From Thermoproteota archaeon (GTDB taxonomy: Archaea > Korarchaeota > Korarchaeia > Korarchaeales > Korarchaeaceae), in NCBI GenBank assembly GCA_027491415.1, contig JAOZFH010000032.1, forward strand, positions 1 through 50,898: DNA of 50,898 bases. The letters run 5' to 3'. Positions 13,510 to 43,881 of the stretch are shown piece by piece. The notes beneath the pieces are model-generated. The model was not told where the DNA came from. It saw only the letters and a program-made list of their open reading frames with translations, and ran no database searches. Made by a program: the position numbers and the translations under genes. The first letter of the stretch is position 1, and each line of letters begins with the position of its first letter.

Positions 13510-13510
13510 C

Positions 13511-14443
13511 TTGGCCGAGGTTCGGGAGTTCTTGAAGGCGAGAGGCTATCCGGATTGGATAATAGAGCGGATTCAGGCCTGCTTTTCGTCGGTAAGGGAG
13601 CTCTCAATGGTTCCCCCGGGAGTCCTGGCTGAGTCCTGCGGGGTGGACGCAAAGGTCGCTAGGGAGATCGTGCGCCAAGCTGCAGAGGCAACCGTCTCCC
13701 TGAGGCCCGCGATCGAGGTGGCCCGAACCCCCAAGAAATACCTCAAATTCTTGGTGAAGTCCATAGACGAACTCCTCGGCGGGGGCCTTCCAAGAGGGTC
13801 TCTCGTTGAAATATACGGAGAACCCGGGGTTGGCAAGACGCAGACCGCCCTTCACCTCGCCGTTAACGCCCTCCTCCCTACGGACGAGGGCGGTCTGGGT
13901 GGGAGGGTGGTCTACGTGGACACCGAGGGGGGGTTCTCCCCAGACAGAGTGGCCGCCATGGCGAGGGCGAGGGGCATGGAGCCAGAATCCGCCCTGGAAC
14001 GCATATCCGTGGCGGAAGTTCGGACGGTGGAGGCTCTGTTGGTCGCGCTAACCCGCGCACGCGATGAGGTCAGGGCGGGGGCAGTCCTCGTGGTTGTGGA
14101 CTCCCTTCTCTCGCCCTTCAGGCAGGAGTATTCGGGTCTTGGCATGCTCGCCGCTAGGCAGCAGAGGCTCGCAGCTGCGCTCGGGGAGCTGGGAAGGGCG
14201 GCAGACCTCGGCGCCGTCTGCGTGATCACCAACCACGTCATTGGGAAGACGGGGGGGCTTCAGCGCTACTCCCCGGCGGGGGGATACGTCCTGGGCCACG
14301 CCCCCGACCCCGTGCTGCTGATCAGGCGGTCCGTCAGGAATAGGCGCATCCTGAGCGTAGTTGACTCCTCACATCTCCCGCCCGGGGAGGCGCTGTTTGC
14401 AATAACGGAAGCCGGGCTCGTCGATGTGGAGGGGCTTGCGTAA
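13511..14443 (+). CDS. RadA/Rad51-like recombinase (divergent paralogue)
   Basis: HhH-like N-terminus, DELLGGGL, GEPGVGKTQ, YVDTEGGFSPDR, VVVDS, RQQRL; start TTG 13511. Confidence 0.82.
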   Translation: MAEVREFLKARGYPDWIIERIQACFSSVRELSMVPPGVLAESCGVDAKVAREIVRQAAEATVSLRPAIEVARTPKKYLKFLVKSIDELLGGGLPRGSLVEIYGEPGVGKTQTALHLAVNALLPTDEGGLGGRVVYVDTEGGFSPDRVAAMARARGMEPESALERISVAEVRTVEALLVALTRARDEVRAGAVLVVVDSLLSPFRQEYSGLGMLAARQQRLAAALGELGRAADLGAVCVITNHVIGKTGGLQRYSPAGGYVLGHAPDPVLLIRRSVRNRRILSVVDSSHLPPGEALFAITEAGLVDVEGLA

Positions 14444-31773: not shown

Positions 31774-33705
31774 GTGGCCACCAGCATGGTTCCTCGCCAC
31801 GATACGAGGTACCTCCCCGCGGATCAGCTGAAGCGGAGGGTTCGCGCGGAGCTCTCAAAGCTGGGCAAGGTAGAGAAGGTGGAGCTAGAGGGGCCCTTCG
31901 TCGTCGCCTATGTCTCGAACCTGCCCGACTTCCTCGACAGCGGGGGCGTGCTGGGTGAGATAGCCAAGACGCTGAAGAAGAAGATCATAATTCGGTCCGC
32001 TAAGCCCATCCTCTCGCCTCAGGAGGCTAAGAGGAAGATCAAGGAACTCATCCCCGACCGCGCCGAGATAGTCGATATGGAGTTCGTGGAGGAAACTGGG
32101 GAGGTGTACATCCTTGCCAAGAGGACTGGATACGTCGTGGGAAAGGCCGGATCGAGCATAAACGAGGTCCTCAAGGCTACGGGGTGGCGCCCCGTCGTCA
32201 TGAGAGCTCCGACGATGCAGTCAACGTTCCTCAACATCCTCTACAACCTGCTCATCGAGGGGGCCCATGAGAGGAAGAAGAACCTGAGGAGGATCGCCAA
32301 GAGGATCTTTAGAGAACCTGTTCCCTTGGGGAGGGGACTCACGATCACGTTCCTCGGCGGTGCCAGGGAGGTCGGCAGGTCCAGCCTACTCGTCAGGACG
32401 GGGGAGAGCTCCGTGTTGCTGGACGCCGGCATAGGCGTGGGGGGCGGGGACTTCTTCCCGAGGTACGACCTCCCGGACCTCGACCTGGACGAGCTGGATG
32501 CGGTCATAGTGACCCACGCCCACCTCGACCACTCCGGCGCCCTCCCCCTCCTGTTCAAGTACGGGTACAGGGGCCCGGTCTACGTCACTAGGCCCACCCG
32601 GGACCTGATCACGCTGCTGCTCTACGACTACATCAACGTCTCCATGCGAACGGGAAAGCTCCCTTACTTCGGTGAGAGGGAGATAAGGCTCCTGATCAAC
32701 CACATGATAGCCCTCGACTACGGCGAGACCGTTGACATATCCCCCGACATCAAGCTCACCTTCTACAACGCCGGGCACATACTGGGCTCTGCACTGGCCC
32801 ACCTCAACGTGCTCAGCGCGAGGCACAACATCCTCTACACGGGTGACTTCAGGTACAGGGACACCAAGCTCCTGAGCAGGGCCCACACCAAGTTCCCGAG
32901 GGTCGAGACCGTCATAATGGAGACCACCTACTCCGGAGAGGGGGACGTCATGCCTCCACTTCAGGAGGCGGAGCGCCAACTGATCTCCATAATCGAGGAG
33001 ACGGTCGCCAAGGGCGGCAAGGTGCTTATCCCTGCCCTGTCGGTCGGCAGGGCTCAAGAGGTCATGCTGAGCTTGGTGGACGCCTTCTCAAAGGGCGAAC
33101 TCCCTGACATCCCCGTGTACATCGACGGCATGATCTACGACGCCACGGCAATCCACACGGCCTACCCCGACTACATGTCGGACTACATGAAGTCAAAGGT
33201 CTTCAAGGAGGATGTCGACCCCTTCACGGAGCCGCACATCACGCCGGTGAGCAGCAGGGAGGACAGGGAGGCGATCGTCGAGGGCGGTCCCGCGATAATC
33301 TTGGCCCCGTCCGGTATGCTCGCTGGAGGGCCGAGCGTCGAGTACCTATCCATGCTGGCCGACGACGAGAGAAACGCCGTGGTTCTGGTCAGCTATCAGC
33401 CCCCAGGCACCCTGGGAAGAGCCCTGAAGGAGGGGGCCAAGGAGATCACGGTCACGAGGAACGGCGCCCCGACCAGAACCCAGGTGAGAGCCTGCGTCTG
33501 CTCGGTGGAGGGGTTCTCTGCGCACGCCGACAGGGTCCAGCTGCTCAGCTGGATGGGTCGCGTCTCTCCGAGACCTAGGAGGTTCATCCTAGTGCACGGC
33601 GAGGAGAGGAAGATAGCGTCCTTCCGCCCGATAGCGGAGAGGACCTTCAGGGGCCAGGCAGCCGTGCTGGCTCCTAGGGTGTCCGAGAGGCTATCCCTGG
33701 CCTGA
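31774..33705 (+). CDS. beta-CASP ribonuclease aCPSF1 (FttA)
   Basis: N-terminal KH domains, EVGRS, THAHLDHSG, NAGHILGS, GFSAHAD, VHGE; psmB synteny. Confidence 0.93.
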   Translation: MATSMVPRHDTRYLPADQLKRRVRAELSKLGKVEKVELEGPFVVAYVSNLPDFLDSGGVLGEIAKTLKKKIIIRSAKPILSPQEAKRKIKELIPDRAEIVDMEFVEETGEVYILAKRTGYVVGKAGSSINEVLKATGWRPVVMRAPTMQSTFLNILYNLLIEGAHERKKNLRRIAKRIFREPVPLGRGLTITFLGGAREVGRSSLLVRTGESSVLLDAGIGVGGGDFFPRYDLPDLDLDELDAVIVTHAHLDHSGALPLLFKYGYRGPVYVTRPTRDLITLLLYDYINVSMRTGKLPYFGEREIRLLINHMIALDYGETVDISPDIKLTFYNAGHILGSALAHLNVLSARHNILYTGDFRYRDTKLLSRAHTKFPRVETVIMETTYSGEGDVMPPLQEAERQLISIIEETVAKGGKVLIPALSVGRAQEVMLSLVDAFSKGELPDIPVYIDGMIYDATAIHTAYPDYMSDYMKSKVFKEDVDPFTEPHITPVSSREDREAIVEGGPAIILAPSGMLAGGPSVEYLSMLADDERNAVVLVSYQPPGTLGRALKEGAKEITVTRNGAPTRTQVRACVCSVEGFSAHADRVQLLSWMGRVSPRPRRFILVHGEERKIASFRPIAERTFRGQAAVLAPRVSERLSLA

Positions 33706-33706
33706 T

Positions 33707-34114
33707 TCACTCCTCCTTAGGACTGCTCCAGACTGCCACGAAGCTCGGAACCACGAGAAGGGGCGGGTAGTCTTCCGTCTTAATGAGCACAACCTCGCCG
33801 CCCATCCGCTGGACCTTCTCCTTCAGCTGCTGCAGCGCTATTCGGAGTTCCTGACTGCTCTTATTGGCCAGCTCGTCGTACCGAACTATCACTATATTGT
33901 TGTCGCTGACCTCCCCGAGGATCAGGTCAATGTCCGTCATGCTCCTCAGGTCAACGGGCTTTATCGCCAGGGGCTTTTCTTCCATGGCCGGGTGGACTGG
34001 GGGGATGTCCTCCAGACCCTCGACATCTTCGTACTCTCCCTCCTCGTAGTACTCGTCATAGTACTCTTCTTCCTCATCTCCCCGCCTGCCGAAGATCTTC
34101 CTGAAGAAACCCAA
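33707..34114 (-). CDS. sepF: Cell division protein SepF
   Basis: Amphipathic MGFFRKIFG, acidic linker, core NNIVIV...LKEKVQRMGGEVV...VVPSFV. Confidence 0.8.
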   Translation of the reverse strand: MGFFRKIFGRRGDEEEEYYDEYYEEGEYEDVEGLEDIPPVHPAMEEKPLAIKPVDLRSMTDIDLILGEVSDNNIVIVRYDELANKSSQELRIALQQLKEKVQRMGGEVVLIKTEDYPPLLVVPSFVAVWSSPKEE

Positions 34115-34241
34115 AGCTCCACACCTTCCCGAGACGTCATTTTGCCGGGCCCACGCTATTTAAAGGATGTCGGGCGGAGGGCTTACGCGATCGCGCCAAA
34201 GTTTAATTCCCCGAGAGCGACTAGCACCTGGGCGCGGGCGC

Positions 34242-34502
34242 ATGAGCAACGCCATGCAGTACCTCACCAGGAACATGAATGGAAACGTGCTGGTGTCCCT
34301 CAAGAACGGGTCTTGGGTTCGGGGCATACTCAGGGCCTTTGACAACCACCTCAACCTGATAGTCGACAACGCTGAGGAGATGTACCACGTGCAGACCTCT
34401 GAGGGGGTCCAGCTTAAGACTACCAGGCTTGGCAAGAGGATACTCATCCGAGGGGACACGGTGGTGGCCATCTCGACCCCCGGCGGTTCTGGGGGGAAGT
34501 AG
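34242..34502 (+). CDS. Sm-like (Lsm/SmAP) protein
   Basis: VLVSLKNG..VRGILRAFDNHLNL, ILIRGDTVV; adjacent to rpl37e. Confidence 0.94.
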   Translation: MSNAMQYLTRNMNGNVLVSLKNGSWVRGILRAFDNHLNLIVDNAEEMYHVQTSEGVQLKTTRLGKRILIRGDTVVAISTPGGSGGK

Positions 34503-34541
34503 CGCAGTCGGGCCGAGTGCTGAACTCGGGGGTGTCTGGCT

Positions 34542-34733
34542 ATGGTGAAGGGGACTCCCTCCATGGGAAAGAGGTCCCGTGGTAAGACCCACATCCGCTG
34601 CAGAAGGTGCGGGAGGCATTCGTACAACGTGAGAAAGAAGTACTGCGCGGCCTGCGGATTTGGCAGGAGCAAGCGGATGAGAAGGTACTCCTGGCAGAAC
34701 AAGATTCCCTACCGCAGGATCCGCGTCGTCTGA
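34542..34733 (+). CDS. rpl37e: 50S ribosomal protein eL37
   Basis: [25 protein letters not shown]. Confidence 0.97.
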
Positions 34734-34816
34734 GCGTCTGAAGAGCCTCCGACGACCTGAGTGACCACGGGCGCGACGCTGGCCCCAGGTTATATACTGC
34801 TCGACAGCGGCTGGCG

Positions 34817-36142
34817 ATGACCGACACGAGGGCGGTCGGCGTCGTCGGAACGGGGGGCGTGGGAAAGACAACGATCTCTTTTCTCTTGGCGCTTGCGCTT
34901 TCCTACGGATCTCGAAGGGAGCTCTCGAGGATTGCGGCCGTCGACGCAGACGTGACGGAGGCCATGCTGACTAAGATGCTTCTCGGTCGCTGGTCGGGGC
35001 CTGACTTGGTGGATCTCCTGCTCGACAGGGCAGACCTCGACTCCGTCTTGATCGCCCCCCGTGTCCTACTGTCGATTCCGGGAGAAAGGGTGTCACCTCC
35101 GGGGTTGAGACCCCTCTCGGTCATTCCGGGGGCGCATTCGAGGGTAGAGGAGGTAAGGTCGCTCGGCGCGGAGCGTCTCAGGGAGTCGCTAGGGAGAATC
35201 CGGGCGGCCTTGGAGGAGAGGGGTATCGAGCTGGCGCTCGTTGACTTCCCTCCCGGGGATCCCTCCCTCACGGAGTTTGCCCACGCGCTCTCCGAGTGGA
35301 TAGACGCGGCCGTCGCAGTGGTCACCCCCTCGAGAAGGAGGGTTGTCGCCACGGCTTCGATGTGCCGGGCGCTGGAGGACAGGGGAGCACCGACGGTGAC
35401 GGTGATCCTAAACAGGTTTCACAAGTCAGAGCCCTTCGACGAGACCGGGATGAGGTGGGAAGACCTGGTGGACACCTACTTCGGGAGGCGCCCCATAGTC
35501 TTGCCGGACGACCCCGAGCTGGCGAGGATTATGGCCCACGACGCCATCCCACTGGACAGGCTCCCCAGGCTGCGACCAGTCAGGGTCTTAGCTGAGCGCC
35601 TAGACACCATCTTGGAGCGAGTTGAGGCGATTCGCATAGAAAAGGCCCGCCCAGCTCCTGAGACGCCTGCGCCCAGCTTTGAGAGCGTAGAGTCGGAACT
35701 CAGGGAGATCTTCTCGTCCGAGCCCCACCCGGAGCTCCAGCCGACAAGATCGAGCGGCCTGCCTCCCATTCACCCGGTGTCCGCGGAGGCGCCTCAAGCT
35801 CACCGACAGGCTGGCACCGGCGGGGCCCCCGGCAAGGCACCCCAGGAGGCCCCAACCTCAGAGGGGCGGTCGGAGAGGTCGGGCATAGCGGCGAAGGTTC
35901 AGGGGAAGTTGAAGAGGCTACTGGGTGGGTCGTTTGAGGTCAGATATCCAGACGGGCGAGTCGTGAGGGTGAAGAAGTCGGTAATCAGGTCCGCCCTGGA
36001 GATGGCCGGGCTCGACAGGGTGGCGCTTGAGTCCTACATGAGGTCAGGCTCGGTGAACTTAGCCGAATTGAGAAGTGCAGAGCTGGGAGCGTGGAGATTC
36101 GCTCTCCTCGCGTCTGGTCTGGAGCCGATGGATGGGTGGTGA
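34817..36142 (+). CDS. MinD/ParA-family ATPase, TadZ/CpaE-like, with Pro-rich linker and C-terminal domain
   Basis: GTGGVGKTT, AVDAD, LVDFPPG, VILNRF; TTATATA box at 34790-34796; first gene of the pilus operon. Confidence 0.75.
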   Translation: MTDTRAVGVVGTGGVGKTTISFLLALALSYGSRRELSRIAAVDADVTEAMLTKMLLGRWSGPDLVDLLLDRADLDSVLIAPRVLLSIPGERVSPPGLRPLSVIPGAHSRVEEVRSLGAERLRESLGRIRAALEERGIELALVDFPPGDPSLTEFAHALSEWIDAAVAVVTPSRRRVVATASMCRALEDRGAPTVTVILNRFHKSEPFDETGMRWEDLVDTYFGRRPIVLPDDPELARIMAHDAIPLDRLPRLRPVRVLAERLDTILERVEAIRIEKARPAPETPAPSFESVESELREIFSSEPHPELQPTRSSGLPPIHPVSAEAPQAHRQAGTGGAPGKAPQEAPTSEGRSERSGIAAKVQGKLKRLLGGSFEVRYPDGRVVRVKKSVIRSALEMAGLDRVALESYMRSGSVNLAELRSAELGAWRFALLASGLEPMDGW

Positions 36143-36151
36143 TGCTTTTCG

Positions 36152-36946
36152 ATGACCTCGAGTCCGTCTAGGACCCTGGTTGTCCTCGTGGGCGCCTACT
36201 CCTTGGTCGCCGTCGCCCTGCTCACCGGGGCCCTTGGGGGGGTGGCCGGGCCGCCGGAGTCGCGTGAGATCTTCAACTCGCCGCTGGAGGCCGCGCTGAC
36301 CGGGGCTCTCGGTGGACTCGTTGGCTATCTCCTCTCCTTCTCCAGCGCAGGCGTGTTGGGCCTGGTTTATGCCTCAAGCCTGTCCGGAATGTCCCGCGGC
36401 TCTACCTTGATCGACCTCTTGGTGAGGGGGTCTCTTTTGGCTCCAGCCGTGTTTGGATTCTCTGACTTTGCCAGCGTGTGCCTTGCCTGGCGATACGGTT
36501 ACGCCAAGTCCGCCAGGTCCGTGCTCAAGTTCACGGGATACGCCGTAGTGATGGGGGCCGCCGCGGCCCTGGCGCTGCCCCCGAGGTGCTCCACCGCCGC
36601 CTGGTGGGCCGTCCGGCTCGACTCTCTGGCGGCCGGAACGTCTGTCTTGGCGATCCCGGCGTGGGCCTACCTTCGGTCCGGAGAGAGGACAATGCGGGGG
36701 ACCGGTCTCGCCCTCGCGACATCGGCGGCCGCTCTGCTTGTGTCTTCGACGTCGGGCGCGCTCGGGGCGCTCGCCGGTGCCTTCTCGGGAGCGATCCCTT
36801 GGCTCATCCCGCGCCGCCTGTTCTTCCGGAAGGTAGTCGAGATTCCCCCGCCGCCAGTTGGACCTAGGGTACAGCGGTCGGTGGCGGATGACATCGCGGA
36901 GGTGAGGCGCCTCATCCTGGAGAGGATGGCCGAGGGGGGTCTCTGA
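36152..36946 (+). CDS. Multi-pass membrane protein of the pilus operon
   Basis: About 7 hydrophobic segments; stop overlaps the next ATG (TGATG). Confidence 0.65.
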   Translation: MTSSPSRTLVVLVGAYSLVAVALLTGALGGVAGPPESREIFNSPLEAALTGALGGLVGYLLSFSSAGVLGLVYASSLSGMSRGSTLIDLLVRGSLLAPAVFGFSDFASVCLAWRYGYAKSARSVLKFTGYAVVMGAAAALALPPRCSTAAWWAVRLDSLAAGTSVLAIPAWAYLRSGERTMRGTGLALATSAAALLVSSTSGALGALAGAFSGAIPWLIPRRLFFRKVVEIPPPPVGPRVQRSVADDIAEVRRLILERMAEGGL

Positions 36947-37347
36947 TGTTTGCGCCGATTCTGGCGGCTCTCTCCCTGCTCCTCGCCGGAGCGCTGTCGC
37001 CCCCGGCCGCGGCCCCAGCCTGCCTAGTCGTCCTCATTGAGGCGTCGCTGGAGGCCCGCGGGTGGATTCGGGGGCGAAGAAGGAGAAAGTTACTCCTCAG
37101 AGTCTTAGAGCGGGCCAGAGAGCTTAAAGAAGCCGGACACCGCGAGAGGTCCAGAGAGCTGATCCTCTCCGCCATAAGGTACGAGCTGGCCGCTAGGCTG
37201 TCTCAGCCCCTCAACTCCGACTTGGCCGAGCTCTCACCCGCCCTGCCCAGGGCTTGGAGGGACCTGCTGTCTTCCGGGTCGGCGGACGACCTCCTCAGGG
37301 CGGCCGAGGTCCTTCTCTCCGGGGAGTCCCGGCCCCGCCTTTTATAG
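36946..37347 (+). CDS. Membrane-anchored helical protein of the pilus operon
   Basis: Hydrophobic N-terminus, charged helical C-terminus; translationally coupled. Confidence 0.55.
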   Translation: MFAPILAALSLLLAGALSPPAAAPACLVVLIEASLEARGWIRGRRRRKLLLRVLERARELKEAGHRERSRELILSAIRYELAARLSQPLNSDLAELSPALPRAWRDLLSSGSADDLLRAAEVLLSGESRPRLL

Positions 37348-37374
37348 CCGCCGAGGCCGCCAGTCGGTGATCCC

Positions 37375-37665
37375 GTGGAGGAGGTACGCCGGCGTCTTCC
37401 CGGCTATCTGATCGAGTTTCTCGAGGATGAGAGGGGGGTCACTCAGACGGTCGAGCAGGCTCTCCTCATAGCCGCCACGATAGCCGCGTTCTTCGTCCTG
37501 GTCGTCAATCCTGTGGCGGGCGTCGTGGACCTGGTGTGGAACCTGCCAGAACTCGCCGACAAGAAGTTCCTCGACTTTGTGACCGAGCTGAGAGATCGAT
37601 TGGGCGGCATCTTCCACTGGGGAGAGGGACAGGCTAACTTGACTGCGAACTCGACTGTTCCCTGA
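37375..37665 (+). CDS. Flp-like type IV pilin precursor
   Basis: FLEDERG|VTQTVEQALLIAATIAAFFVLVV: class III signal resembling Flp FxxDExG|ATAIEY; TTTTATA box at 37340-37346. Confidence 0.72.
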   Translation: MEEVRRRLPGYLIEFLEDERGVTQTVEQALLIAATIAAFFVLVVNPVAGVVDLVWNLPELADKKFLDFVTELRDRLGGIFHWGEGQANLTANSTVP

Positions 37666-37677
37666 AGGGGGAGGGCC

Positions 37678-39078
37678 TTGCTGCTCGGGGAGGGCAGGGT
37701 TCGCGAGTTCGCGGCCGCCGTATCTCGGCTCGACTATGCGTGGGCGCGACTCCTAGCCGCCAGGCCCGCGAGGACCTACGACGAGCTGAGGGCCAGGTCG
37801 GCCCGCGGGGAGAGGGAGCCCAGGGGGATCATCGCAGCCGTTCCTCCGCCGCCTAACTGTCCGCCGGTTCCAGATGGGAGAATTCTGGAGGACTTAGGAC
37901 CCGCCCTGCTCGTGCAGAACGGTCGGCGAGAAGGCGCGCTGGTTCCGAAGAGCTGGGTCCGCGGCGGCGACTCCGCGGCCTCCGCAGCAGCTGCGGCAGA
38001 ACTCCTGCGGGGCAGGTACCCGCCCGACGTGCTGGAAGCGGGGCTTTGGAGGACGGTGTCCTACAGGTCGTCTCTGGCGGCCGGAATAGGGTTGGATCCG
38101 GACCTCGCCCTTGAGGCGGCCGTTAGATCGACGAAGCTGTGGCCGATCGCGATCCTCTTGATGGGCTCGGACGTGACTGAGGTCTACGGGAGCCTCGGAT
38201 CGAGGGTGTACATCGATCACATCGAGGCGGGAAGGTTGGTCGTCGAGAACCTGATCCTCGACGAGACCGACTTTGAGAGAATAAGGAGCTTCGTCGAACT
38301 CCATCCACACGGCTCCATCGGTCCCCACAACCCTCTCGCAAAGGTCGACCTGGAGCTGCCCGGAGGCAGGGTGAGGCTCACGGTGGACGTGCCCCCAGCC
38401 TCCACCCCTGGGTTTGACGCAAGGAACCTGTCCGCGATGTCTCGCCTCCCACTCCCAAGGCTCATATCCCTTGGGACCATCTCGGAGACTCAGGCCGCGC
38501 ACGTGCTTGAGGCGCTGTCCGGGGGCACGCCCGTCCTGGTCGCGGGTCCGACTGGGTCGGGCAAGACGACGCTATGCAACGCCCTGCTGGTGGCCCTAGG
38601 GAGGGGGGTCAGGGTGCTCACGGTGGAGGAGGTCAGGGAGGTGGAGGACCTCGGTGAGTATGGAATGCTCCACCACGCCTACGCAATTCCCGGGGCCCGA
38701 ACCTCGGCGGTCATGGCCCTGCTCCACAGGAACCCAGACGTCGTCTTCTTGGGGGAGATATTGAGTTCAGAGCACGCCAGGGCGTTTGAGTTCGCCGTCG
38801 ACTCTGGCTTCAGAGTGCTGGCCACCACGCACGCCTCGGACCGGCGGGGGCTCATGCGGAAGTGGTCCTCTTGGGGGCTCTCCCAGGCCCTCGAGGGCGC
38901 GCTGATCGTGTTCATGAGAGACAAGAGGGTGGAGCGCGTCGGCACGGTGATGGGAGGCGCCTGGGAGGAGGTCGACCCCGAGCCGAGCGGCGCCTGGTTT
39001 GACCTCGTCCGATCGCTCAGGGGCATGCGGACGAACTTCGAGGTCGCGGCCGCCGTTGGCAGGGTGATTCCGGCTTGA
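37678..39078 (+). CDS. TadA/CpaF/VirB11-family secretion ATPase
   Basis: GPTGSGKTT, Asp box TVEEVRE, NPDVVFLGEI, His box TTHA. Confidence 0.88.
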   Translation: MLLGEGRVREFAAAVSRLDYAWARLLAARPARTYDELRARSARGEREPRGIIAAVPPPPNCPPVPDGRILEDLGPALLVQNGRREGALVPKSWVRGGDSAASAAAAAELLRGRYPPDVLEAGLWRTVSYRSSLAAGIGLDPDLALEAAVRSTKLWPIAILLMGSDVTEVYGSLGSRVYIDHIEAGRLVVENLILDETDFERIRSFVELHPHGSIGPHNPLAKVDLELPGGRVRLTVDVPPASTPGFDARNLSAMSRLPLPRLISLGTISETQAAHVLEALSGGTPVLVAGPTGSGKTTLCNALLVALGRGVRVLTVEEVREVEDLGEYGMLHHAYAIPGARTSAVMALLHRNPDVVFLGEILSSEHARAFEFAVDSGFRVLATTHASDRRGLMRKWSSWGLSQALEGALIVFMRDKRVERVGTVMGGAWEEVDPEPSGAWFDLVRSLRGMRTNFEVAAAVGRVIPA

Positions 39079-39596
39079 GCGTCGCCAGCCTGTTTGGAGG
39101 AAGAAGTTCCCGCGACAGGCTGCGGGCCGTCTACGCGCTCTGCGCCGCCCTGCCAGCCGGCGCGCCCGGCGCCCTGAGGGTTGCCGCCGAGGTGGCGCCT
39201 GAGGAGGTCGCGCGGGCCTTCAGGAGCGCCCTGGCTGAGGCGGCCGTCGAGGGCACGCCCATCGAAGCGGCGCTCGAGAGGTCGCTCTCAACTGTAGACT
39301 GGGCCCCTCTGAGGGAGACGGTCACCGCGCTTGTCAGGGGAGGAAACCCGGGGGTCTCTCTCGACATTCTCAGGCGCTACGTTGAGTCTGAGATCGAGGC
39401 CGAGTCTCGGGAGATATCGCTCAGGTTGGGGATCCGGACGACGGCCGCCTTCTCCGCCATCACCGTGGTGGCGGCCTCGGTGGTCACGGGCTCCGCGCCG
39501 CCCGGCCTCATCGCCCCGGCGGCCGCCGCGATCTCCCTGTTCCTCCTGGCGGCGTCGGTGAGGAGGTGGATCCGACTGTGGAGGGCCCGAGCCTGA
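39075..39596 (+). CDS. TadB-like platform membrane protein
   Basis: GTPIEAALE helix, GGNPGVSL, two C-terminal TM helices; follows the ATPase. Confidence 0.62.
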   Translation: MSVASLFGGRSSRDRLRAVYALCAALPAGAPGALRVAAEVAPEEVARAFRSALAEAAVEGTPIEAALERSLSTVDWAPLRETVTALVRGGNPGVSLDILRRYVESEIEAESREISLRLGIRTTAAFSAITVVAASVVTGSAPPGLIAPAAAAISLFLLAASVRRWIRLWRARA

Positions 39597-40147
39597 TGGA
39601 CTGGCTGGCCTCCCTCCTTGAGGCTGGCATGCCTCCCCTGGCCGCCATTGAGTCTCTTGCGCGCTCTCAAAGTGAGCTGCAAGGGGCGGCGGCCAGGGCG
39701 AAGGTCGAGGGAGACGTTCTGACCTCCCTCTCGCTTGCCGCCGAGGCCTTCGGCGACGACGCCCCCCTGGTGAGGGCCTTGGTCCCCGGCCTGAGTCCGG
39801 ACGGGGCGGCCATGATCCTGCGCCACGCCGCCTCGGCGTCCCGCGCCATCGGGCAGCTCATGGAGGAGAGGAAGTCGGTGCTGAGGTGGCACAGGCGGGT
39901 GTGCAGGACCCTCGCGGCTTCCGTAGCCGCCTCGACGGCAGTCTTGGGCAAGGTGACCGATCTGCTGGCTCAGATGTCCCTGGGCCATGGCGTCCAGGGA
40001 ACCGGTGCCCTAGGTCCCATGGTGGCCATTGGGCTGGGGTTCTCAGCGCTCCTCCTGTCCGAGACCGGGGACAGCCCCGCCTGGATGGCCCTGCCTGCCG
40101 CCTCGGCGGCGCTGTCAATAGCTCTGCTGGAGGCGATGGGGGTTTGA
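39596..40147 (+). CDS. TadC-like platform membrane protein
   Basis: LASLLEAGMPPLAAIESL (T2SS-F motif) and C-terminal TM helices. Confidence 0.68.
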   Translation: MDWLASLLEAGMPPLAAIESLARSQSELQGAAARAKVEGDVLTSLSLAAEAFGDDAPLVRALVPGLSPDGAAMILRHAASASRAIGQLMEERKSVLRWHRRVCRTLAASVAASTAVLGKVTDLLAQMSLGHGVQGTGALGPMVAIGLGFSALLLSETGDSPAWMALPAASAALSIALLEAMGV

Positions 40148-40530
40148 CCACGCTCAGCCTCGCCACATCGGTGCTTCTCATCTCGGAGGTGTGGATTGCG
40201 GCCTGCGTAGACTCCCGCTCCGGGAGGGTTCCGAACAGCCTCAACGCCGCCTTTCTGACCTTGAACCTGGCTGTGGCTGGCTCTCTGGGGTGGTGGAGGC
40301 CGGCCCTGGTCTGGTCTGCCCTGTCCGTCCCGGCCGCGCTGGTCCTGCACAGGCTAGGCCTGGGAGGCGGAGACCTGAAGCTCGTCCTGTCTACGTGCCT
40401 CCTGGGCGGGCCGATCCCCTGGGTGGCCCTCGCCGCCGCGTGCGTCGCCGGGTACCTCAGCGGCGGCAGGTTCTCCGCGCTCGACCTGGCGGCCTTCGCG
40501 ACGGTCTTCGCGATTCCGACACTCCTCTAG
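40144..40530 (+). CDS. Short A24 prepilin peptidase (TadV/CpaA-like)
   Basis: Two catalytic Asp motifs: ACVDSRSGRVPN and GLGGGDLKL; 128 aa, mostly membrane. Confidence 0.85.
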   Translation: MTTLSLATSVLLISEVWIAACVDSRSGRVPNSLNAAFLTLNLAVAGSLGWWRPALVWSALSVPAALVLHRLGLGGGDLKLVLSTCLLGGPIPWVALAAACVAGYLSGGRFSALDLAAFATVFAIPTLL

Positions 40531-40752
40531 CAGGCTGGCAGTCTCCTTCCACCGGCTCTTCCCGAGCCCCAGCCTCCGGAGCAGATCCTTGAAGGGAATC
40601 CGAGCCCCTCCCCTCAACCTCGTGGGGAACCCGACCTGTTCCATTGCCAGAAGGACCGCGACCGCCGCGAGGTGCCGGGGGTTCCTCCCCGCCAGGGCCC
40701 CACCCACCCCCTCGACCCCGCGCAGCATGGCGATTGCCCTGATCCTGATCAC
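40354..40752 (-). pseudogene. In-frame continuation of the TFB paralogue (second cyclin repeat) after TGA-ATG-TAG
   Basis: Same frame as 41268-40762; GRNPRHLAAVAVLLA matches the TFB repeat-2 motif; tail overlaps the peptidase gene antisense. Confidence 0.6.
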
Positions 40753-40761
40753 CTCCTACAT

Positions 40762-41268
40762 TCACCCCATGTCCAGACCTGACCTGACCAGCCCCCTGAT
40801 TATCGCCCCGACGTAGTACTCCGGAGAGACCCTGTAAGAGACGCCTACAAGCGATTTTACTGCCTCCATGCCCTTCAAGACGTCGCTTGGCCTGACCTTC
40901 CTGGCCCGGGTGAGGGAGAGCGCTTCCAGCACCTCCGAGATCGTAAGGGGATACCCCAGCCTCCTACCCGCGGCCAGGAGACACGCGGCGGCTAGGGAGG
41001 CGGACGCCCGCCCTCCCGTCTTGGAGAGGTAGATCCACAAGAGCCCCTCGGCGGCCGAGCGCACCGAATCGGGCACCTCAAGGGCCTCGGCCAGGTCTTG
41101 GATAACCCTCAGCCGGGAACTCTTCGCTGGGACTCCCAGCCACCAGCCCTCAAGCCGCGAGATCCTGCCCCACATCCTCCCACACGTCGGACACACTAGG
41201 CAGCCGTCCTCAACGATGAGGCGCGATCCGTCAACCGGGCACCTGGACGCGTCCTCCTGGACCACCAT
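40762..41268 (-). CDS. TFB (TFIIB) paralogue: Zn ribbon + first cyclin repeat
   Basis: CPVD...CLVCPTCG; IQDLAEALEVP...GRASASLAAACLLAAGRRLGYPLTISEV; SPEYYV. Confidence 0.75.
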   Translation of the reverse strand: MVVQEDASRCPVDGSRLIVEDGCLVCPTCGRMWGRISRLEGWWLGVPAKSSRLRVIQDLAEALEVPDSVRSAAEGLLWIYLSKTGGRASASLAAACLLAAGRRLGYPLTISEVLEALSLTRARKVRPSDVLKGMEAVKSLVGVSYRVSPEYYVGAIIRGLVRSGLDMG

Positions 41269-41335
41269 GCGCCGCAGCTGGGGCCGATGCAGGTTTCCCC
41301 CGCCCACCTGACGAAAGTATCCCGCTCGCGGGCGT

Positions 41336-41581
41336 TCAGGGGGCTCCCAATATTCTCGGAGCCGAGGCCAGCGCGATATCCGCAACCAGTAGGTAGAGCA
41401 TCACCCGCCTGATCTCCCGCGCCAGTTCCAAGTGGTCCTCAAGGAGCCAGGAGAGGACGAGCAGCAGGGCTATCGGCGGCGCGGCCTCCCGGGCCAGGGC
41501 AGACGCCCTCAGCAGGCCATCTCTCACAGCCTCCCAGAGTCCCCAGAGCATTTCTCCGAGCTCTCTCTCGAACGGGTTCAC
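41336..41581 (-). CDS. Small two-helix membrane protein
   Basis: GTG overlaps the upstream TGA; 81 aa with two hydrophobic segments. Confidence 0.6.
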   Translation of the reverse strand: MNPFERELGEMLWGLWEAVRDGLLRASALAREAAPPIALLLVLSWLLEDHLELAREIRRVMLYLLVADIALASAPRILGAP

Positions 41582-42501
41582 GTGGCCTCCCTCCGCAGAA
41601 GCCCGCGAGTGACGACCGTGATCGCGCCCTCCGAGTAGCACCCCCACCCGGTCCTCTCTTCCTTCCACCAGTAGCGTACCTCGGGGTCCTCCACCCAGAC
41701 GCGTATTAGGAGGGTGGCACGGTGCGTCGCCTCGACCCACTCGCCCCTCCTATCCAGATCGAGTTCTGTTCCGTTGAGAACGACGTCGAACGAGATGCTC
41801 AGTCCCCGCTTGGAATACTTGAGCCTCAGCTCTCTCTCTAGCGCCCTCACCTCACCGATTACCTGCCGCATCGCGCCGTCGGAGGCCTCGAGGAGTTCGG
41901 CGGAGGAGTTGACGACTCCTACAAAGAATACCGCGCGGCCGGCTATCTCGCCGATGCCCGCCGCGGCCTCCCGGTGTGCCTCAATCACCGAGTAGTACCT
42001 CAGGGGGTGGACCACCGTGAAGGTGTAGTTCCTGACCGCCGACGTCTCGGCCAGCCCCCTCCTAACCACCGTCGAGACGTTGAGCGCGCCTCGGACCCTT
42101 ATCATCCCTGCGTCGCCTCCGCCGAGGAAGAGGGAATTGAGATCCTCGTCCACCCCGCCTGGGCCGGGGTTCCTCCTGAGTTCCACCTCAGCCGAGGCCT
42201 TGAGCTCCGAGGCAGTCTCCACGAGCGCCGCCCGGGAGATCATCTCCTCCCAGTCCTCCAGATCTATCTGCGGAGGTTCGATGTCCTCGAGGCTCTTCCC
42301 GTTGGTCTCAACCATCCACCTGTCGATCGCGCAGCGGACGTAGATCAGGAGCCGAGGAAGGGCGGCCTCGGCCTCCATCCACGCCACCGCCTGCGAGAGC
42401 CCGGCGTCGATCGCGGGGGGGTCTAGCTCACTCGCCCTGTGCCCCCCCAGCGCCGAGAGGGCGATCACCAGCACCGCGGCGAGCCCGAGGAGGTCCCTCA
42501 C
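41578..42501 (-). CDS. Secreted/membrane-anchored protein, probable glycoprotein
   Basis: N-terminal hydrophobic helix (RDLLGLAAVLVIALSALGG); sequons NVS, NYT, NSS, NGT; GTGA coupling. Confidence 0.68.
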   Translation of the reverse strand: MRDLLGLAAVLVIALSALGGHRASELDPPAIDAGLSQAVAWMEAEAALPRLLIYVRCAIDRWMVETNGKSLEDIEPPQIDLEDWEEMISRAALVETASELKASAEVELRRNPGPGGVDEDLNSLFLGGGDAGMIRVRGALNVSTVVRRGLAETSAVRNYTFTVVHPLRYYSVIEAHREAAAGIGEIAGRAVFFVGVVNSSAELLEASDGAMRQVIGEVRALERELRLKYSKRGLSISFDVVLNGTELDLDRRGEWVEATHRATLLIRVWVEDPEVRYWWKEERTGWGCYSEGAITVVTRGLLRREAT

Positions 42502-42773
42502 CCTCTCCCCACCTCGACGGTGTGGTTCAGCCCCCCTGGGAGCGGGATCACCACCCTCGCCGACAGCGGGCAGGAGAGGTTCAGCCTGCCGTCCACCTCT
42601 GTCACGCTCTCCCAGACAAGCCTCGCCCCCTCCTCGCTCAGCGCGTCGACGAGCCCTCCGGCTTGCGAATCCCTGCAGGCGACCACCCACCCGGTGCTGC
42701 GGTATCCCAGGAGGGAGTAGCCGGCCAGCGCGACCACCATAAGCGCGCCCACCGCCAGCCACAGAACCCTCAC
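42498..42773 (-). CDS. Small N-anchored protein (minor-pilin-like)
   Basis: Hydrophobic N-helix, Cys pair, sequons NLS and NHT; SD GGAGGTGA. Confidence 0.62.
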   Translation of the reverse strand: MRVLWLAVGALMVVALAGYSLLGYRSTGWVVACRDSQAGGLVDALSEEGARLVWESVTEVDGRLNLSCPLSARVVIPLPGGLNHTVEVGRG

Positions 42774-42898
42774 GGTATCACCTCCAGCGGTAGTGGGCTC
42801 GGCGGCTGCACAGCGGCCAGCGCAGCCGCGACGAGCGCGGCGATCACCAAGGCGAGCCAGAGTAGGTCCCCGATCGCGTCAGCCGCCTCCTCTGACAA
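42770..42898 (-). CDS. 42-aa single-TM protein
   Basis: Manual translation MSEEAADAIGDLLWLALVIAALVAAALAAVQPPSPLPLEVIP*; stop overlaps the next GTG and fills the operon gap. Confidence 0.55.
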   Translation of the reverse strand: MSEEAADAIGDLLWLALVIAALVAAALAAVQPPSPLPLEVIP

Positions 42899-43148
42899 CC
42901 CGCCCACCGCCCTCCCTCAGGCCCCCCGCTCCTGACGGAACTTGGACCTCGCCCCCCCACGGGTACCTAACCACCGTGGTGACGCGGAGGGACTCGGCCC
43001 TCTCTCCCAGCCTCGCGATGTCCTCCCTGAGCCTGGCGCTTGAGGCCCGTTCTCCCAGGCCGCGTAGGAGGGCGCCCATGGCCAGGGCGCTCAGCAGGAG
43101 GGAGGCGTTCAGGGCGATGCCGAGCGACTCCCTGAGCACCCTCCTCAC
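42879..43148 (-). CDS. Small N-anchored protein (minor-pilin-like)
   Basis: Hydrophobic N-helix followed by an amphipathic helix; coupled to neighbours. Confidence 0.55.
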   Translation of the reverse strand: MRRVLRESLGIALNASLLLSALAMGALLRGLGERASSARLREDIARLGERAESLRVTTVVRYPWGGEVQVPSGAGGLREGGGRVVRGGG

Positions 43149-43570
43149 TACCCCCTCACCTCCAGCAGTACGGCCCCCTCGTCCCAGGCCGCCCCGACCC
43201 AGACCAACCCCCTGACCACGCAGACCTCGTTCTCAGGGTGCCAGGGGTAAGTCTGTCCGCTCAGGAGCCTCACCTCCACCGGAAACTCGACCGTGAACTC
43301 GGAGAGGCTCTCGTTGTCCCAGACGATGACCTGACCACCCCTGGCCTCGACCACGAGTTCCACCGGAATGAACACCCGGGTCCTGCAGGCCCCCCCTCCA
43401 ATGACGGCCGACACGCAGTTGCTCACGGCCCCGCCGAGGGTCCACTCGCTCGACGCCGTCAGCCGCCGGTCTATCCTCCCCGCGGCCTCTCGCATGGGGC
43501 CCGAGGCTAGGGCCAGCATGGCAGCCGCTGAGACGAGCCCGATCATGGCGTAGGCGAGCGTCTCGTTCAT
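43148..43570 (-). CDS. Pilin-like protein (N-helix + beta-rich head)
   Basis: MNETLAYAMIGLVSAAAMLALA, long helix, then beta-strand pattern with Cys residues; sequon NES. Confidence 0.62.
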   Translation of the reverse strand: MNETLAYAMIGLVSAAAMLALASGPMREAAGRIDRRLTASSEWTLGGAVSNCVSAVIGGGACRTRVFIPVELVVEARGGQVIVWDNESLSEFTVEFPVEVRLLSGQTYPWHPENEVCVVRGLVWVGAAWDEGAVLLEVRG

Positions 43571-43800
43571 TTACTCTCCACCCCCAGTAGCCTGGCCAGC
43601 TCACGCGCCTCCCTCTCGCTCGCCGTCAGCAGTCCAACCATAAGGCCCGCCAGCGCCTCGGCCGCCTCGCTGGCCGCAGGATTGACGATCCTGATCTCGG
43701 CAATGACCTCCCGGAGGTGCCTCCTGGCCCTCTCCCTGCTGGCGTCGAGGCTCGGCCTGCGCCGAAGCGGGAGGGAGATCAGCCTACCGAGGTTCCGCAT
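43567..43800 (-). CDS. Small hypothetical protein, first gene of the minus-strand operon
   Basis: ATG 43800 about 20 nt after TTTTATTT (43820-43827, minus strand); stop overlaps the next ATG. Confidence 0.55.
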   Translation of the reverse strand: MRNLGRLISLPLRRRPSLDASRERARRHLREVIAEIRIVNPAASEAAEALAGLMVGLLTASEREARELARLLGVESK

Positions 43801-43881
43801 CGCTGCGAGGAGTTCAGCGAAATAAAAGGCGGGGCCGGGCGGGTCGGGGGGGGTTATATCCTGCGCGGAGGCGCCGGCCTG

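Follow-up and report, generated by a model that had tools for sequence, protein, structure and literature searches.

A lineage-wide type IV pilus gene cluster of Korarchaeota with a locus-specific promoter tag and a TFB-like paralogue

Results

Gene content and organization of the locus

The window (the whole 50,898-nucleotide stretch of DNA analyzed here) contains an archaeal type IV pilus gene cluster that is found lineage-wide. A previous, sequence-only reading described a plus-strand operon facing a minus-strand operon, and all 16 genes of the locus are indeed found at the coordinates that it gave (Table 1). Its claim of tight coupling also holds, as most neighbors overlap by 1–4 bases or lie 9–27 bases apart by coordinates and sequence. 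On the plus strand, a MinD/FleN-type ATPase gene is followed by those for two membrane proteins, a Flp-like prepilin, a very divergent T2SSE-type ATPase, two T2SSF halves and an A24 peptidase; on the minus strand lie seven genes for small proteins and then a TFB-like gene.

Table 1 Features of the pilus locus, with positions in the window.
Feature	Position	Strand	Basis or remark
Promoter tag 1, GGCCCCAGG + TTATAT	34781..34795	+	22 bases before MinD-like ATG
MinD/FleN-type P-loop ATPase, 441 aa	34817..36142	+	CbiA 28.5 bits, cut-off 25.4
Polytopic membrane protein, 264 aa	36152..36946	+	No Pfam family
Membrane-anchored helical protein, 133 aa	36946..37347	+	No Pfam family
Promoter tag 2, GGCCCCGCC + TTTTAT	37331..37345	+	Internal, 30 bases before pilin GTG
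Flp-like prepilin, 96 aa, GTG start	37375..37665	+	Flp_Fap 15.3 bits
Divergent T2SSE/VirB11-type assembly ATPase, 466 aa	37678..39078	+	T2SSE 57.5 bits, cut-off 24.9
Platform half 1 (TadB-like by position), 173 aa	39075..39596	+	T2SSF 19.0 bits
Platform half 2 (TadC-like by position), 183–193 aa	39566..40147	+	T2SSF 18.1 bits
Minimal A24 aspartic prepilin peptidase, 128 aa, TTG start	40144..40530	+	Peptidase_A24 29.0 bits, cut-off 26.5
TFB-like paralogue, C-terminal part: second cyclin-like repeat and tail	40354..40752	-	Same frame as N-terminal part
Two in-frame stops: TGA 40762–40764, TAG 40756–40758	40756..40764	-	GGA/GAG in relatives
TFB-like paralogue, N-terminal part, 168 aa	40762..41268	-	TFIIB repeat 31.2 bits, cut-off 23.6
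m81, small protein, two hydrophobic helices	41336..41581	-	Genus-specific
m307, N-terminal membrane helix, long helix, two alpha/beta modules	41578..42501	-	Lineage-restricted family
m91, N-terminal membrane anchor and small domain	42498..42773	-	g1 and g2
m45, single-helix micro-protein ending PPSPLP	42770..42907	-	g1 and g2
m89, N-terminal membrane anchor and short beta region	42879..43148	-	g1 only
m140, leaderless pilin-shaped protein	43148..43570	-	Alignments and structure model
m77, small soluble helical protein, first minus-operon gene	43567..43800	-	Alignments
Promoter tag 3, GGCCCCGCC + TTTTAT	43822..43836	-	22 bases before m77 ATG

Plus-strand components

The N-terminal ATPase domain of the MinD-like protein is followed by a C-terminal extension of about 190 residues, and its Walker A motif (GTGGVGKTT) is without the signature lysine. 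When its family profile was compared with the PDB, archaeal MinD (65.8 bits) and FleN were matched, and TadZ was absent from the best 60 of 65 matches. Among 19 loci examined, the 264-residue membrane protein is present in six, all from genera g1 and g2, and the 133-residue protein is limited to the four loci of the genus.

The prepilin leader ends in DERG, with a predicted mature end VTQTVEQALLIAATIAAFF..., and residues D18, E19 and G21 are invariant. Its Flp_Fap score falls below the cut-off of 32.2, which counts against the best explanation set out in the Discussion. The gene is single-copy in the genome, as is m140. In the peptidase, D23 and D77 (GGGD) are invariant (8/8). This mini-peptidase occurs in 13 of 43 genomes and in every genus with a leader-bearing Flp ORF (8/8 such ORFs); it is found in none of the 21 genomes of genus g3, and there the Flp-like ORFs start at the mature end (3/3). 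This shared occurrence across genera suggests a dedicated peptidase–pilin pairing. Elsewhere in the genome there is another A24 peptidase, an ordinary one with about 235 aa.

For platform half 2, the ATG at 39596 is the likely start. Both halves score below the Pfam cut-off for T2SSF (25.2), and at E ≤ 0.05 just 2/7 and 1/7 members of their families match T2SSF, which is likewise counted against our best explanation; alignment by hhalign with the fused platform of the same genome was not significant. In a search of 878 ORFs, the half 1 profile matches T2SSF genes in the ATPase-proximal position in other phyla (best E 6.7e-9) and the half 2 profile those in the ATPase-distal one (best E 1.2e-9). 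Split platform pairs occur in eight of the nine other-phylum archaeal genomes sampled, with halves of about 300 aa, and both split and fused platforms occur within the phylum. A further T4P locus in the genome, of a more ordinary type, encodes a fused platform.

Minus-strand operon and its linkage to the assembly ATPase

After correction of the ORF starts from alignments, the seven minus-strand proteins measure 77, 140, 89, 45, 91, ~307 and ~81 aa, and none has a Pfam family (0/7). Structure prediction for m140, a check that the sequence-only reading had called for, gave a helix at residues 2–56 followed by a beta sheet (pLDDT 91.8). A PDB fold search returned no match at E ≤ 0.001 for either m140 or m307, so the term pilin-shaped refers to the order of secondary structure in m140. 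All 25 high-quality genomes, and 38 of the 43 in total, carry the m307 family, which has 26 representatives among 1.84 billion proteins.

The two convergent operons had been taken as one system, and synteny bears this out. Homologues of m140 and m307 accompany the ATPase in four of the five families of the phylum, and in seven distant loci (7/19 examined) both are on the ATPase's own strand. The ATPase and m307 are at most 5 kb apart in 16 of the 30 phylum genomes with both, and the same figure holds for m140, the other core gene of the minus-strand operon. In the other 14 genomes they are more than 100 kb apart or on separate contigs, which counts against a single system, except that two of these separations are uninformative because of contig ends. 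On this linkage, the minus-strand operon belongs to the pilus system.

Phylogenetic place of the ATPase and comparison with known systems

The Walker A motif (GxxGxGKTT) and the other catalytic columns of the assembly ATPase are invariant (17/17). Every sampled phylum genome but one (31/32) has an orthologue at E ≤ 2.6e-44; in the exception (G015, 75% complete) the match reaches just 8.1e-11. By source name, the members of this family are Korarchaeota. In the tree they stand apart on a long branch as one clade (support 100/100, stem 2.2 changes per column), in an open polytomy that also holds TadA, ArlI and two further archaeal clades, and they group with no split-platform clade among those sampled.

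The sequence-only reading had suggested that the system stands close to the origin of bacterial Tad from an archaeal Epd-like pilus. The locus does share the Tad core list (MinD-type ATPase, Flp-like pilin, ATPase, two platform genes and short peptidase) and the ATPase-TadB-TadC order. It also resembles Tad in that a hydrophobic helix bearing an early Glu comes after the G-cut Flp-like leader, and in that the short peptidase carries no methyltransferase domain. Nor does the AU test reject placing the ATPase family and bacterial TadA in one clade (p 0.457, log-likelihood difference 1.09). Given this value and the polytomy, closeness to the Tad transition is neither backed nor rejected by the ATPase tree. 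Among the genomes sampled, the best ATPase match from beyond the phylum (E 1.8e-16) belongs to a compact module, ATPase(411)-TadB(224)-TadC(214)-Flp(92), at locus L041 of a 0.8-Mb archaeal genome (G039), with a TadA-family score (139 bits) above that for FlaI (125 bits). The module resembles the present locus in its gene order, in the small size of its platform halves and in an adjoining Flp-like gene, but its ATPase is a long branch (2.05) that does not join the korarchaeal clade, and no peptidase, MinD, m140 or m307 homologue is found on its 8.7-kb contig.

Several other observations argue against a position near the Tad transition. The ATPase family profile favors FlaI/GspE2 (96 bits) over CpaF (68 bits), and the NCBIfam order for the window's ATPase is TrbB (58 bits), FlaI (49.5) and TadA-family (43.7). 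The MinD-like protein resembles archaeal MinD/FleN in its profile matches, and secretin and TadE-like families have no match in the locus. Split platforms are, as noted above, common. Further differences from bacterial Tad are the prepilin score below the Flp_Fap threshold, the domain arrangement of the MinD-like protein and the lack of a match for RcpB/C, TadD or TadF/G. We therefore find the proposed closeness unsupported and consider it quite improbable.

Epd entered these comparisons by its published description. The cited passages on Epd, or archaeal T4F system 1 (Makarova clade 1, Methanococcus maripaludis), describe, as here, an ATPase with two separate platform genes, short headless pilins, a MinD/FlaH-type second ATPase, a dedicated prepilin peptidase and extra anchored cluster proteins (PMC13705601, PMC4858521, PMC6668835). 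In contrast, EppA is a 9-TM form of the peptidase and the korarchaeal one has 128 aa; the platform halves are 173–193 aa here, where those of other phyla with split pairs have about 300 aa; the ATPase lies outside every sampled split-platform clade; and m140 and the rare m307 family are peculiar in being without a Pfam family.

Promoter tag and TFB-like paralogue

The sequence GGCCCC-N3-TTWTAT occurs exactly three times in the 1.78-Mb genome, once upstream of each of three transcription units, where window shuffles give an expected count of 0.01. Across four genus loci the tag is present on 12/12 promoters; tag 1 is kept in all four, as GGCCCT in L020. In four other genomes of the genus, 11 of 12 genome-wide matches lie inside the locus, and genome G005 of genus g2 has no match genome-wide. 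The TFB-like paralogue has a similarly narrow range, scoring >500 bits in all five genus genomes and ≤ 85.5 bits elsewhere, so that tag and paralogue are both confined to the genus.

The N-terminal part of the paralogue, which starts at ATG 41268 (TTG 41385 was rejected), comprises a degenerate Zn ribbon (CPVDG...CLVCPTCG), a short linker and the first cyclin repeat; the C-terminal tail runs antisense across the peptidase gene. The gene that had been described as ending the minus-strand operon is indeed present, but in the window it is broken after the G of ...SGLDMG by TGA, ATG, TAG. Three genus relatives have GGA and GAG at the stop codons and uninterrupted proteins of 277–320 aa, and a fourth (G001) has no stop within the match, so the gene is open in 4/5 genus genomes.

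Is this the system's own transcription factor, as the sequence-only reading proposed? The genus-confined gene and the co-occurring, locus-unique tag agree with that proposal, whereas the two stops, the short linker and the lack of a Zn-ribbon match do not. TFIIB homologues in archaeal T4P loci have been reported before, and arCOG01981 and arCOG05559 are the commonest predicted regulators there in the cited passages (PMC4858521). Similarly, a B-finger-less TFB paralogue is tied to the Ups pili of Sulfolobus (TFB3; PMC6101591, in the passage cited). The present paralogue differs from TFB3 in having two cyclin-like repeats and in standing last in the pilus operon, and the cited passages describe no BRE-position tag like the one unique to the three promoters here (PMC6101591, PMC4858521). 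A three-promoter tag specific to a pilus locus is new here.

It is possible, though doubtful, that the tag is read by another factor, or that the TFB-like protein is a repressor or a decaying passenger. The paralogue is about 50–60 residues shorter than canonical TFB in the B-reader/linker between ribbon and cyclin, and without this part it might sit on TBP/DNA unable to start transcription. Zn_Ribbon_TF (PF08271) matches none of three intact copies, compared with 3e-14 for canonical TFB; the second repeat has no Pfam match; and the short TFB-like paralogues of other genera (about 244 aa) are not linked to pilus genes. All three tags are intact in the window despite its interrupted copy, which also counts against our best explanation. 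With a repressor or passenger, the pilus genes of this genome would stay on, or show no change, once the paralogue was lost. On the other hand, the tag sits exactly at the TFB–DNA contact, directly upstream of the TATA box (PMC6101591, in the passage cited), and shares its narrow distribution with a paralogue that is mostly open and that, by eye, retains an R-[WY]-K-E helix in the region aligned with the canonical HTH. Reading of the tag by the paralogue is the alternative that we prefer; the putative pairing comes from one lineage, and hence from one evolutionary event, which is a further point against it.

Discussion

Taken jointly, the best explanation, and in our judgment a probable one, is a phylum-wide archaeal/Tad-branch type IV filament machine whose promoter tag, within this genus, would be read by the TFB-like paralogue. 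The 96-aa prepilin would enter the membrane and be cleaved after the conserved DE[RS]G by the 128-aa peptidase. A hexameric T2SSE ATPase would then polymerize the pilin via a platform of two half-size T2SSF proteins, and the MinD/FleN-type ATPase may position or license the machine. The convergent operon would supply outer parts, with m140, m307 and the small anchored proteins probably priming, capping or anchoring the filament. Within the genus, the GGCCC[CT]-N3-TATA tag common to the three units lies where the BRE is contacted by archaeal TFB, and the paralogue may read it to turn on the whole system, itself included.

The same machine might instead build a short pseudopilus for secretion, DNA uptake or another envelope task. 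Consistent with this are the single pilin and m140 genes, an accessory set unlike any characterized pilus and the second T4P locus; Makarova et al. raised the possibility that a TFIIB-linked system of Thermoproteales serves for something other than a pilus (PMC4858521, in the passage cited). However, short pilins free of globular domains build the long Tad and Epd filaments in the cited passages (PMC6668835, PMC13705601), and no gene for a secreted substrate or DNA handling was found within the locus. We consider a pseudopilus unlikely. For the filament proposed here, attachment or cell–cell contact is the likely function by analogy with Epd and Tad pili. The korarchaeal locus is ordinary in kind and unusual in regulation.

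Gene content of the pilus locus

Two convergent, tightly packed gene rows occupy 34817-43800 of the window, whose G+C content is 58-69%. An ORF and Pfam scan returned these rows as the sequence-only reading had described them, with a plus row running from a MinD-like protein to a peptidase and a minus row ending in a TFB-like gene, except that the TFB-like gene is interrupted (Table). None of the plus-row proteins reaches the cut-off of an NCBIfam model, and none of the seven minus-row ORFs before the TFB-like gene (m77, m140, m89, m45, m91, m307 and m81, named by length in amino acids) matches a Pfam family. Directly upstream of the locus lie housekeeping-looking genes, their order kept within the genus, which by eye encode a 643-aa beta-CASP/CPSF-like protein, a 135-aa acidic protein, an Sm-like protein and ribosomal protein L37e.

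Table. Features of the pilus locus and of loci compared with it. Coordinates without a locus or contig handle are positions in the window; L and G:C handles denote loci and genome:contig places, G000 being the window's genome.
Feature	Location	Strand	Remark
Housekeeping-looking genes	31774-34733		upstream of the locus
Tag 1	34781-34795		before MinD-like gene
MinD-like	34817-36142	+	CbiA/MinD/ParA 28.5 bits, cut-off 25.4
Two membrane proteins	36152-36946, 36946-37347	+	no Pfam match
Tag 2	37331-37345		before pilin gene, inside end of preceding gene
Flp-like pilin	37375-37665	+	Flp_Fap 15.3 bits, below cut-off 32.2
ATPase	37678-39078	+	T2SSE (PF00437) 57.5 bits, cut-off 24.9
Two ~180-aa platform proteins	39075-39596, 39566/39596-40147	+	T2SSF 19.0 and 18.1 bits, below 25.2
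Peptidase	40144-40530	+	Peptidase_A24 (PF01478) 29.0 bits, cut-off 26.5; TTG start overlapping preceding stop, giving 128 aa
TFB-like tail antisense to peptidase gene 3' end	40354-40530	-	~177 bases
Stretch with both stops of TFB-like gene	40750-40836		spanned by alternative contigs of run X1
TFB-like ORF, last in minus row	start ATG 41268	-	TFIIB repeat 31.2 bits; start from alignment with relatives
m81	start 41581	-	'134-aa' ORF, ~81 aa by alignment with relatives
m307	start GTG 42501	-	'394-aa' ORF, ~307 aa by alignment with relatives
Tag 3	43822-43836		before m77
Ordinary A24 peptidase gene	G000:C20 7769-8098		236-aa frame, away from pilus locus
Second T4P core	L054, G000:C7 3768-6773		more ordinary
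Leaderless Flp-like pilins of genus g3	L024 8253-8516, L026 8014-8289, L027 11166-11408
Tandem-ATPase frame	L052 4933-8004 (G032:C25)		1024 aa
Other-phylum module	L041 (G039:C28) 4898-7735		0.8-Mb archaeal genome
Cys-rich surface protein	L041 131-3523		>1130 aa, beside module
TFB-like frame of genus g4	L028 about 13501-13980 (G007:C4:69500-69979)		333 aa
Short TFB-like paralogue	G024:C4:546797-547441		12 similar places elsewhere
Tag match outside pilus locus	L058 1474-1488 (G002:C17:13973-13987)		~30 bases before a 104-aa ORF

Linkage of the two gene rows

All 16 genes occur in the same order in the four loci of the window's genus (g1), and in an iterated profile search of 19 loci both rows were also present in the sister genus (g2), which lacks the TFB-like gene. 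In seven distant loci (L024, L026 and L027 of genus g3; L032 of family f2; L033 and L034 of f4; L035 of f5), m140 and m307 lie directly downstream of the ATPase-platform(-peptidase) genes, on the same strand. Among the 30 genomes in which both genes were placed, the ATPase and m307 are less than 5 kb apart in 16 and on separate contigs or more than 100 kb apart in 14 (two of them at contig ends); the unlinked m307 matches are weaker (1e-18 to 1e-50). The m307 gene itself was found in 38 of the 43 phylum genomes, including 25/25 high-quality ones. The close linkage in 16 genomes and the shared strand in seven loci indicate that the minus row belongs to the machine, and the earlier claim that the two convergent rows form one system withstood this synteny check. 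The convergent layout is an inversion peculiar to g1 and g2.

Conservation and placement of the ATPase

The ATPase carries the Walker A and B motifs and the Asp and His boxes of T2SSE/VirB11-type hexameric ATPases, and G290, T292, G295, K296, T297, T298, E317, E321, N352, P353, G359, E360, T383 and H385 are invariant in 17/17 orthologues. Orthologues (E <= 2.6e-44) are present in 31 of 32 sampled genomes of the phylum, a group of 43 species genomes in total; the exception, G015, is 75% complete. The matches in nine archaeal genomes of other phyla were all distant (E 1.8e-16 to 5.6e-5). Among 5.8 billion proteins, a word-indexed search returned 39 matches at E <= 8.9e-80, with 'Candidatus Korarchaeum sp.', 'Candidatus Korarchaeota archaeon' and 'Thermoproteota archaeon' as the named sources of close matches, and the next-best matches (about 1e-11) were bacterial GspE, TadA-family and CpaF proteins. 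Against plasmids, tblastn of the ATPase found five records, four annotated TrbB and one without an annotated feature, and no CpaF.

For phylogenetic placement, 38 sequences were aligned over 387 columns (LG+C20+F+G4, 1000 ultrafast bootstraps). Of these, 17 belong to this family, 15 come from 14 archaeal loci elsewhere, and six are bacterial sequences taken from the 5.8-billion-protein search and named by NCBIfam. A weak 533-aa match on contig C30 and the phylum orthologues beyond the 17 aligned were left out, and the reference set held no verified Epd sequence. The family is monophyletic (100/100), and its stem measures 2.2 changes per column. It falls on the archaeal-plus-TadA side, separated from PilB/GspE/PilT with 99/98 support, and there forms part of an open polytomy. 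Constraining it to group with the three bacterial TadA-family sequences cost 1.09 log-likelihood units, and the AU test does not reject this grouping (p 0.457). With the family profile, FlaI and Archaeoglobus GspE2 reach 96 bits, CpaF 68 bits. The sequence-only reading had placed the system possibly close to the archaeal-to-bacterial Tad transition; given the polytomy and a CpaF score below that of FlaI, this is not supported, and nothing in the sequences compared here favours a special closeness of the ATPase to Tad.

Related systems occur in this and other genomes. The window's genome has a second, more ordinary T4P core (L054) with a fused 520-aa platform and an ATPase of 478 aa, which scores 259 bits with the FlaI model, short of its cut-off. 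Locus L052 encodes a frame with two tandem T2SSE domains, mutually nearest in the tree (100/97), which adjoins a split platform pair. In an archaeal genome of another phylum, the L041 module comprises an ATPase of 411 aa, whose TadA-family score is above its FlaI score, platform proteins of 224 and 214 aa, and a Flp-like gene of 92 aa (MRG|MTTVEW...); a Cys-rich surface protein is encoded beside it.

Platform proteins

The platform halves are poorly recognized by Pfam, with 2/7 and 1/7 family members matching at E <= 0.05, and hhalign comparisons of the halves with each other and with the fused 520-aa platform of the same genome were not significant. Searched against 878 ORFs, the half profiles nevertheless match bona fide T2SSF genes of other phyla. 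The best matches of half 1 are the ATPase-proximal genes of split pairs (6.7e-9, 5.1e-6 and 9.2e-6), and those of half 2 the distal genes (1.2e-9 and 4.4e-7). The split therefore corresponds to a two-gene arrangement common in archaea, present in 8/9 outside archaeal genomes. The halves measure 173-193 aa here versus about 300 aa in the split pairs of other phyla. Within the phylum, the platform is split in g1, g2, f4 and f5 and fused in L032, where one 466-aa frame contains both halves. It is probably also fused in g3, as a single 308-aa frame with a match to the second half only.

Prepilin and peptidase

Both catalytic aspartates of an A24 peptidase, D23 and D77 (GGGD), are invariant in 8/8 sequences of the 128-aa enzyme (mini-peptidase), and its profile has no match among PDB sequences at E <= 0.1. 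An invariant D-E-[RS]-G closes the prepilin leader and marks a predicted cleavage site; beyond it come [VL]-T-Q-T-x-E and a hydrophobic helix. Of 43 genomes searched, 13 gave a mini-peptidase match, in g1, g2 (3/5), g4, g7, g10 and, weakly, g6, and in 0/21 g3, 0/4 g5 and 0/2 f4 genomes; an ordinary A24 gene, as on contig C20 of the window's genome, is present in 39/43.

All eight leader-bearing Flp ORFs come from genera with the mini-peptidase. The three Flp-like ORFs of g3 start where the mature pilin would (M-x-[NQ]-T-x-E), and in two a stop lies only four codons upstream. Since leader and mini-peptidase co-vary across genera, the 128-aa enzyme would serve this prepilin, and the co-variation is the best evidence here for a putative link between the two. 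The g3 pilins are leaderless in a genus that does have one ordinary A24 gene; to make a type IV pilin with no cleavable leader would be unusual.

MinD-like protein and accessory proteins

The MinD-like family profile finds archaeal MinD (65.8 bits) and FleN as its best PDB matches, whereas phmmer with the single protein finds none. The P-loop reads GTGGVGKTT, without the signature lysine. For m140, the AlphaFold model (pLDDT 91.8) has a helix at residues 2-56 followed by a beta sheet, so the modelled order of secondary structure is that of a pilin. The protein begins M-N-E-T-L with a stop just upstream, and has weak similarity to the mature end of the pilin (E about 0.5). The m307 model (pLDDT 90.1) combines one membrane helix and one long helix with two modules of helix plus sheet. 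Foldseek of the m140 model against PDB gave no match, and neither did the m307 model against PDB. As leads only, Atlas comparisons gave 0.93 to archaeal clusters for m140, and three clusters had Class_IIIsignal in 12% of their members; for m307, whose family has 26 representatives among 1.84 billion proteins, they gave 0.80 at best, again to archaeal clusters.

Comparison with known systems

Bacterial Tad systems include the secretin RcpA/CpaC and the pseudopilins TadE/TadF, but none of these Pfam families was detected in the 16 products at E <= 0.1. In TadZ/CpaE, an N-terminal receiver-like domain is followed by an atypical ParA/MinD ATPase; the MinD-like protein of this locus instead has its ATPase domain N-terminal (residues 10-242), followed by a C-terminal extension, and its best PDB matches are archaeal MinD and FleN. 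Like Epd/system 1, the locus has two separate single-T2SSF platform genes, although fused forms occur in the same phylum. Epd/system 1 has a 9-TM peptidase of the EppA type (arCOG02300) according to the text of PMC4858521, unlike the 128-aa peptidase here.

The same text defines the archaeal T4P clades, names Korarchaeota among the clade 4 taxa without discussing their loci, and already reported in 2016 that archaeal T4P loci contain TFIIB homologues, among them a single-cyclin form that shares an operon with the ATPase (PMC4858521). Tad is derived from an Epd-like archaeal system in the text of PMC6668835, and Korarchaeota are absent from the main text of PMC13705601. We did not find this korarchaeal system described in main texts; the supplements of PMC4858521 and PMC13705601 may list these loci and their arCOGs. 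The locus is a genuine, phylum-wide and strongly diverged type IV filament system, a new form of a known kind of machine.

A promoter tag confined to the pilus locus

Alignment of the regions upstream of both operons in the four genus loci revealed an invariant block, GGCCC, located 3 bases ahead of a TATA box, the position at which TFB reads the BRE. The pattern GGCCCCNNNTTWTAT has three matches in the window versus 0.01 expected, and 0/100 shuffles reach three. Across the whole genome (1,783,303 bases), the tag gave those same three matches and the reversed control none. Among the 324 TTWTAT sites of this genome, the upstream sequence is weakly A-rich at -6 to -4, and GGCCCC at -9 to -4 occurs at no site besides the three tags. 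The TATA boxes start 27, 35 and 27 bases before the start codons, and these distances suggest transcripts that would be leaderless or nearly so.

The tag is present at 12/12 promoters of the four genus loci, once as GGCCCT. With Y at the sixth base, the matches falling in the locus are 3/3 in G004, 3/3 in G003, 2/2 in G001 and 3/4 in G002. The g2 genome G005 has no tag match, and g2 promoters carry a different upstream sequence. The sole match outside the pilus locus in the genus, in L058, precedes a 104-aa and then a 118-aa ORF, which we take to resemble a DUF433-type antitoxin and a PIN-like partner.

The TFB-like paralogue

The paralogue in the window is not an open reading frame: after '...SGLDMG' it reads TGA, ATG, TAG and then continues in the same frame through the second cyclin-like repeat. 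Three loci of the same genus (L018, L019 and L020) read GGA and GAG there, giving open proteins of 304, 277 and 320 aa. Both changes are G-to-T at the first codon position, 6 bases apart, and in a search of 43 phylum genomes this combination (one TGA, one TAG) occurs in the window's genome only; the single TAA reported for the G002 paralogue is a natural, earlier stop. Read-through of TGA and TAG as Sec and Pyl was ruled out, the relatives having ordinary GGA and GAG codons. A consensus error and a true loss are equally possible. Each of 18 public sequencing runs contained at most 0.14 of the sampled words; the four that were mapped contain relatives about 90-95% alike to the window, and the stop positions are not among the 40 differences listed for them (there are 84 more). 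Two alternative contigs of 87-88 bases from run X1, at depths of 11.6 and 38.4, cover exactly the stretch with both stops, a hint of strain variation at this site in related populations.

The genome's canonical TFB is a single copy, and the paralogue differs from it in several respects. Its first Zn knuckle is degenerate (CPxDG), the PF08271 Zn ribbon is matched by 0/3 intact paralogues at E <= 0.1 (3e-14 for the canonical TFB of the same genome), and about 50-60 columns in the B-reader/B-linker region (alignment columns about 52-126) are empty. The first cyclin repeat matches PF00382 in 3/3 (24.9-40.7 bits), and the second aligns with the canonical repeat without a Pfam match. MAFFT places a 10-column gap in the HTH region, where inspection by eye still finds an R-[WY]-K-E helix, so the HTH is read as divergent rather than lost. 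The C-terminal tail of the frame runs antisense to the end of the peptidase gene; it is poorly conserved and shorter in G002, and for the most part probably does not form functional protein. The 67-base gap before the gene has no TATA-like box, and a promoter of its own was rejected for that reason.

Orthologues scoring >500 bits occur in five genus genomes only. Short TFB-like paralogues of ~225-281 aa, scoring 58-86 bits to the pilus-linked one, were found in G024 and 12 similar places, spread over g3 and G012 (g2), unlinked to the ATPase; the pilus-linked gene may have derived from this family. In g4, the TFB-like frame of L028 lies ~1.2 kb downstream of ATPase-platform-peptidase-Flp genes, and may be a canonical TFB placed there by chance. 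The proposal that the system carries its own transcription factor therefore stands in part: a TFB-like gene does end the minus row, is confined to the genus and occurs together with the tag, but the copy in the window has two stops and the family lacks a PF08271 match.

A candidate factor and its proposed promoters

The most interesting feature of the locus is the pairing of a private tag with a TFB-like gene, both specific to the genus. In the proposed mechanism, the paralogue would read GGCCC[CT] at the BRE position, 3 bases before the TATA box, because the tag occupies that position, the orthologues are genus-only, and the gene is last in the minus row without a TATA box of its own. A tag-reading paralogue would also switch its own operon, creating a self-reinforcing switch. 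We consider it possible but rather unlikely that the two form such a sigma-factor-like pair, in which a pilus-encoded TFB paralogue reads a tag on only three pilus promoters, its own included. The co-occurrence of tag and paralogue counts as a single evolutionary event.

Do alternative archaeal TFBs select promoters in the manner of bacterial sigma factors? The question is old and poorly resolved. A candidate factor and all its candidate sites are named here, three in the whole genome and conserved in four relatives, and if true, this would be an unusually clean cis/trans case of promoter choice by an alternative archaeal TFB.

If these readings hold, a type IV filament machine can drift far yet keep its core. 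The signs of drift are an isolated ATPase clade, half-size platforms, a 128-aa peptidase and accessory proteins without a solved-structure match; within the phylum, the platform is fused or split, and the pilin leader is present or absent together with a dedicated peptidase. This would caution against reading nearness to bacterial Tad from the mere combination of two platform genes with a short pilin.
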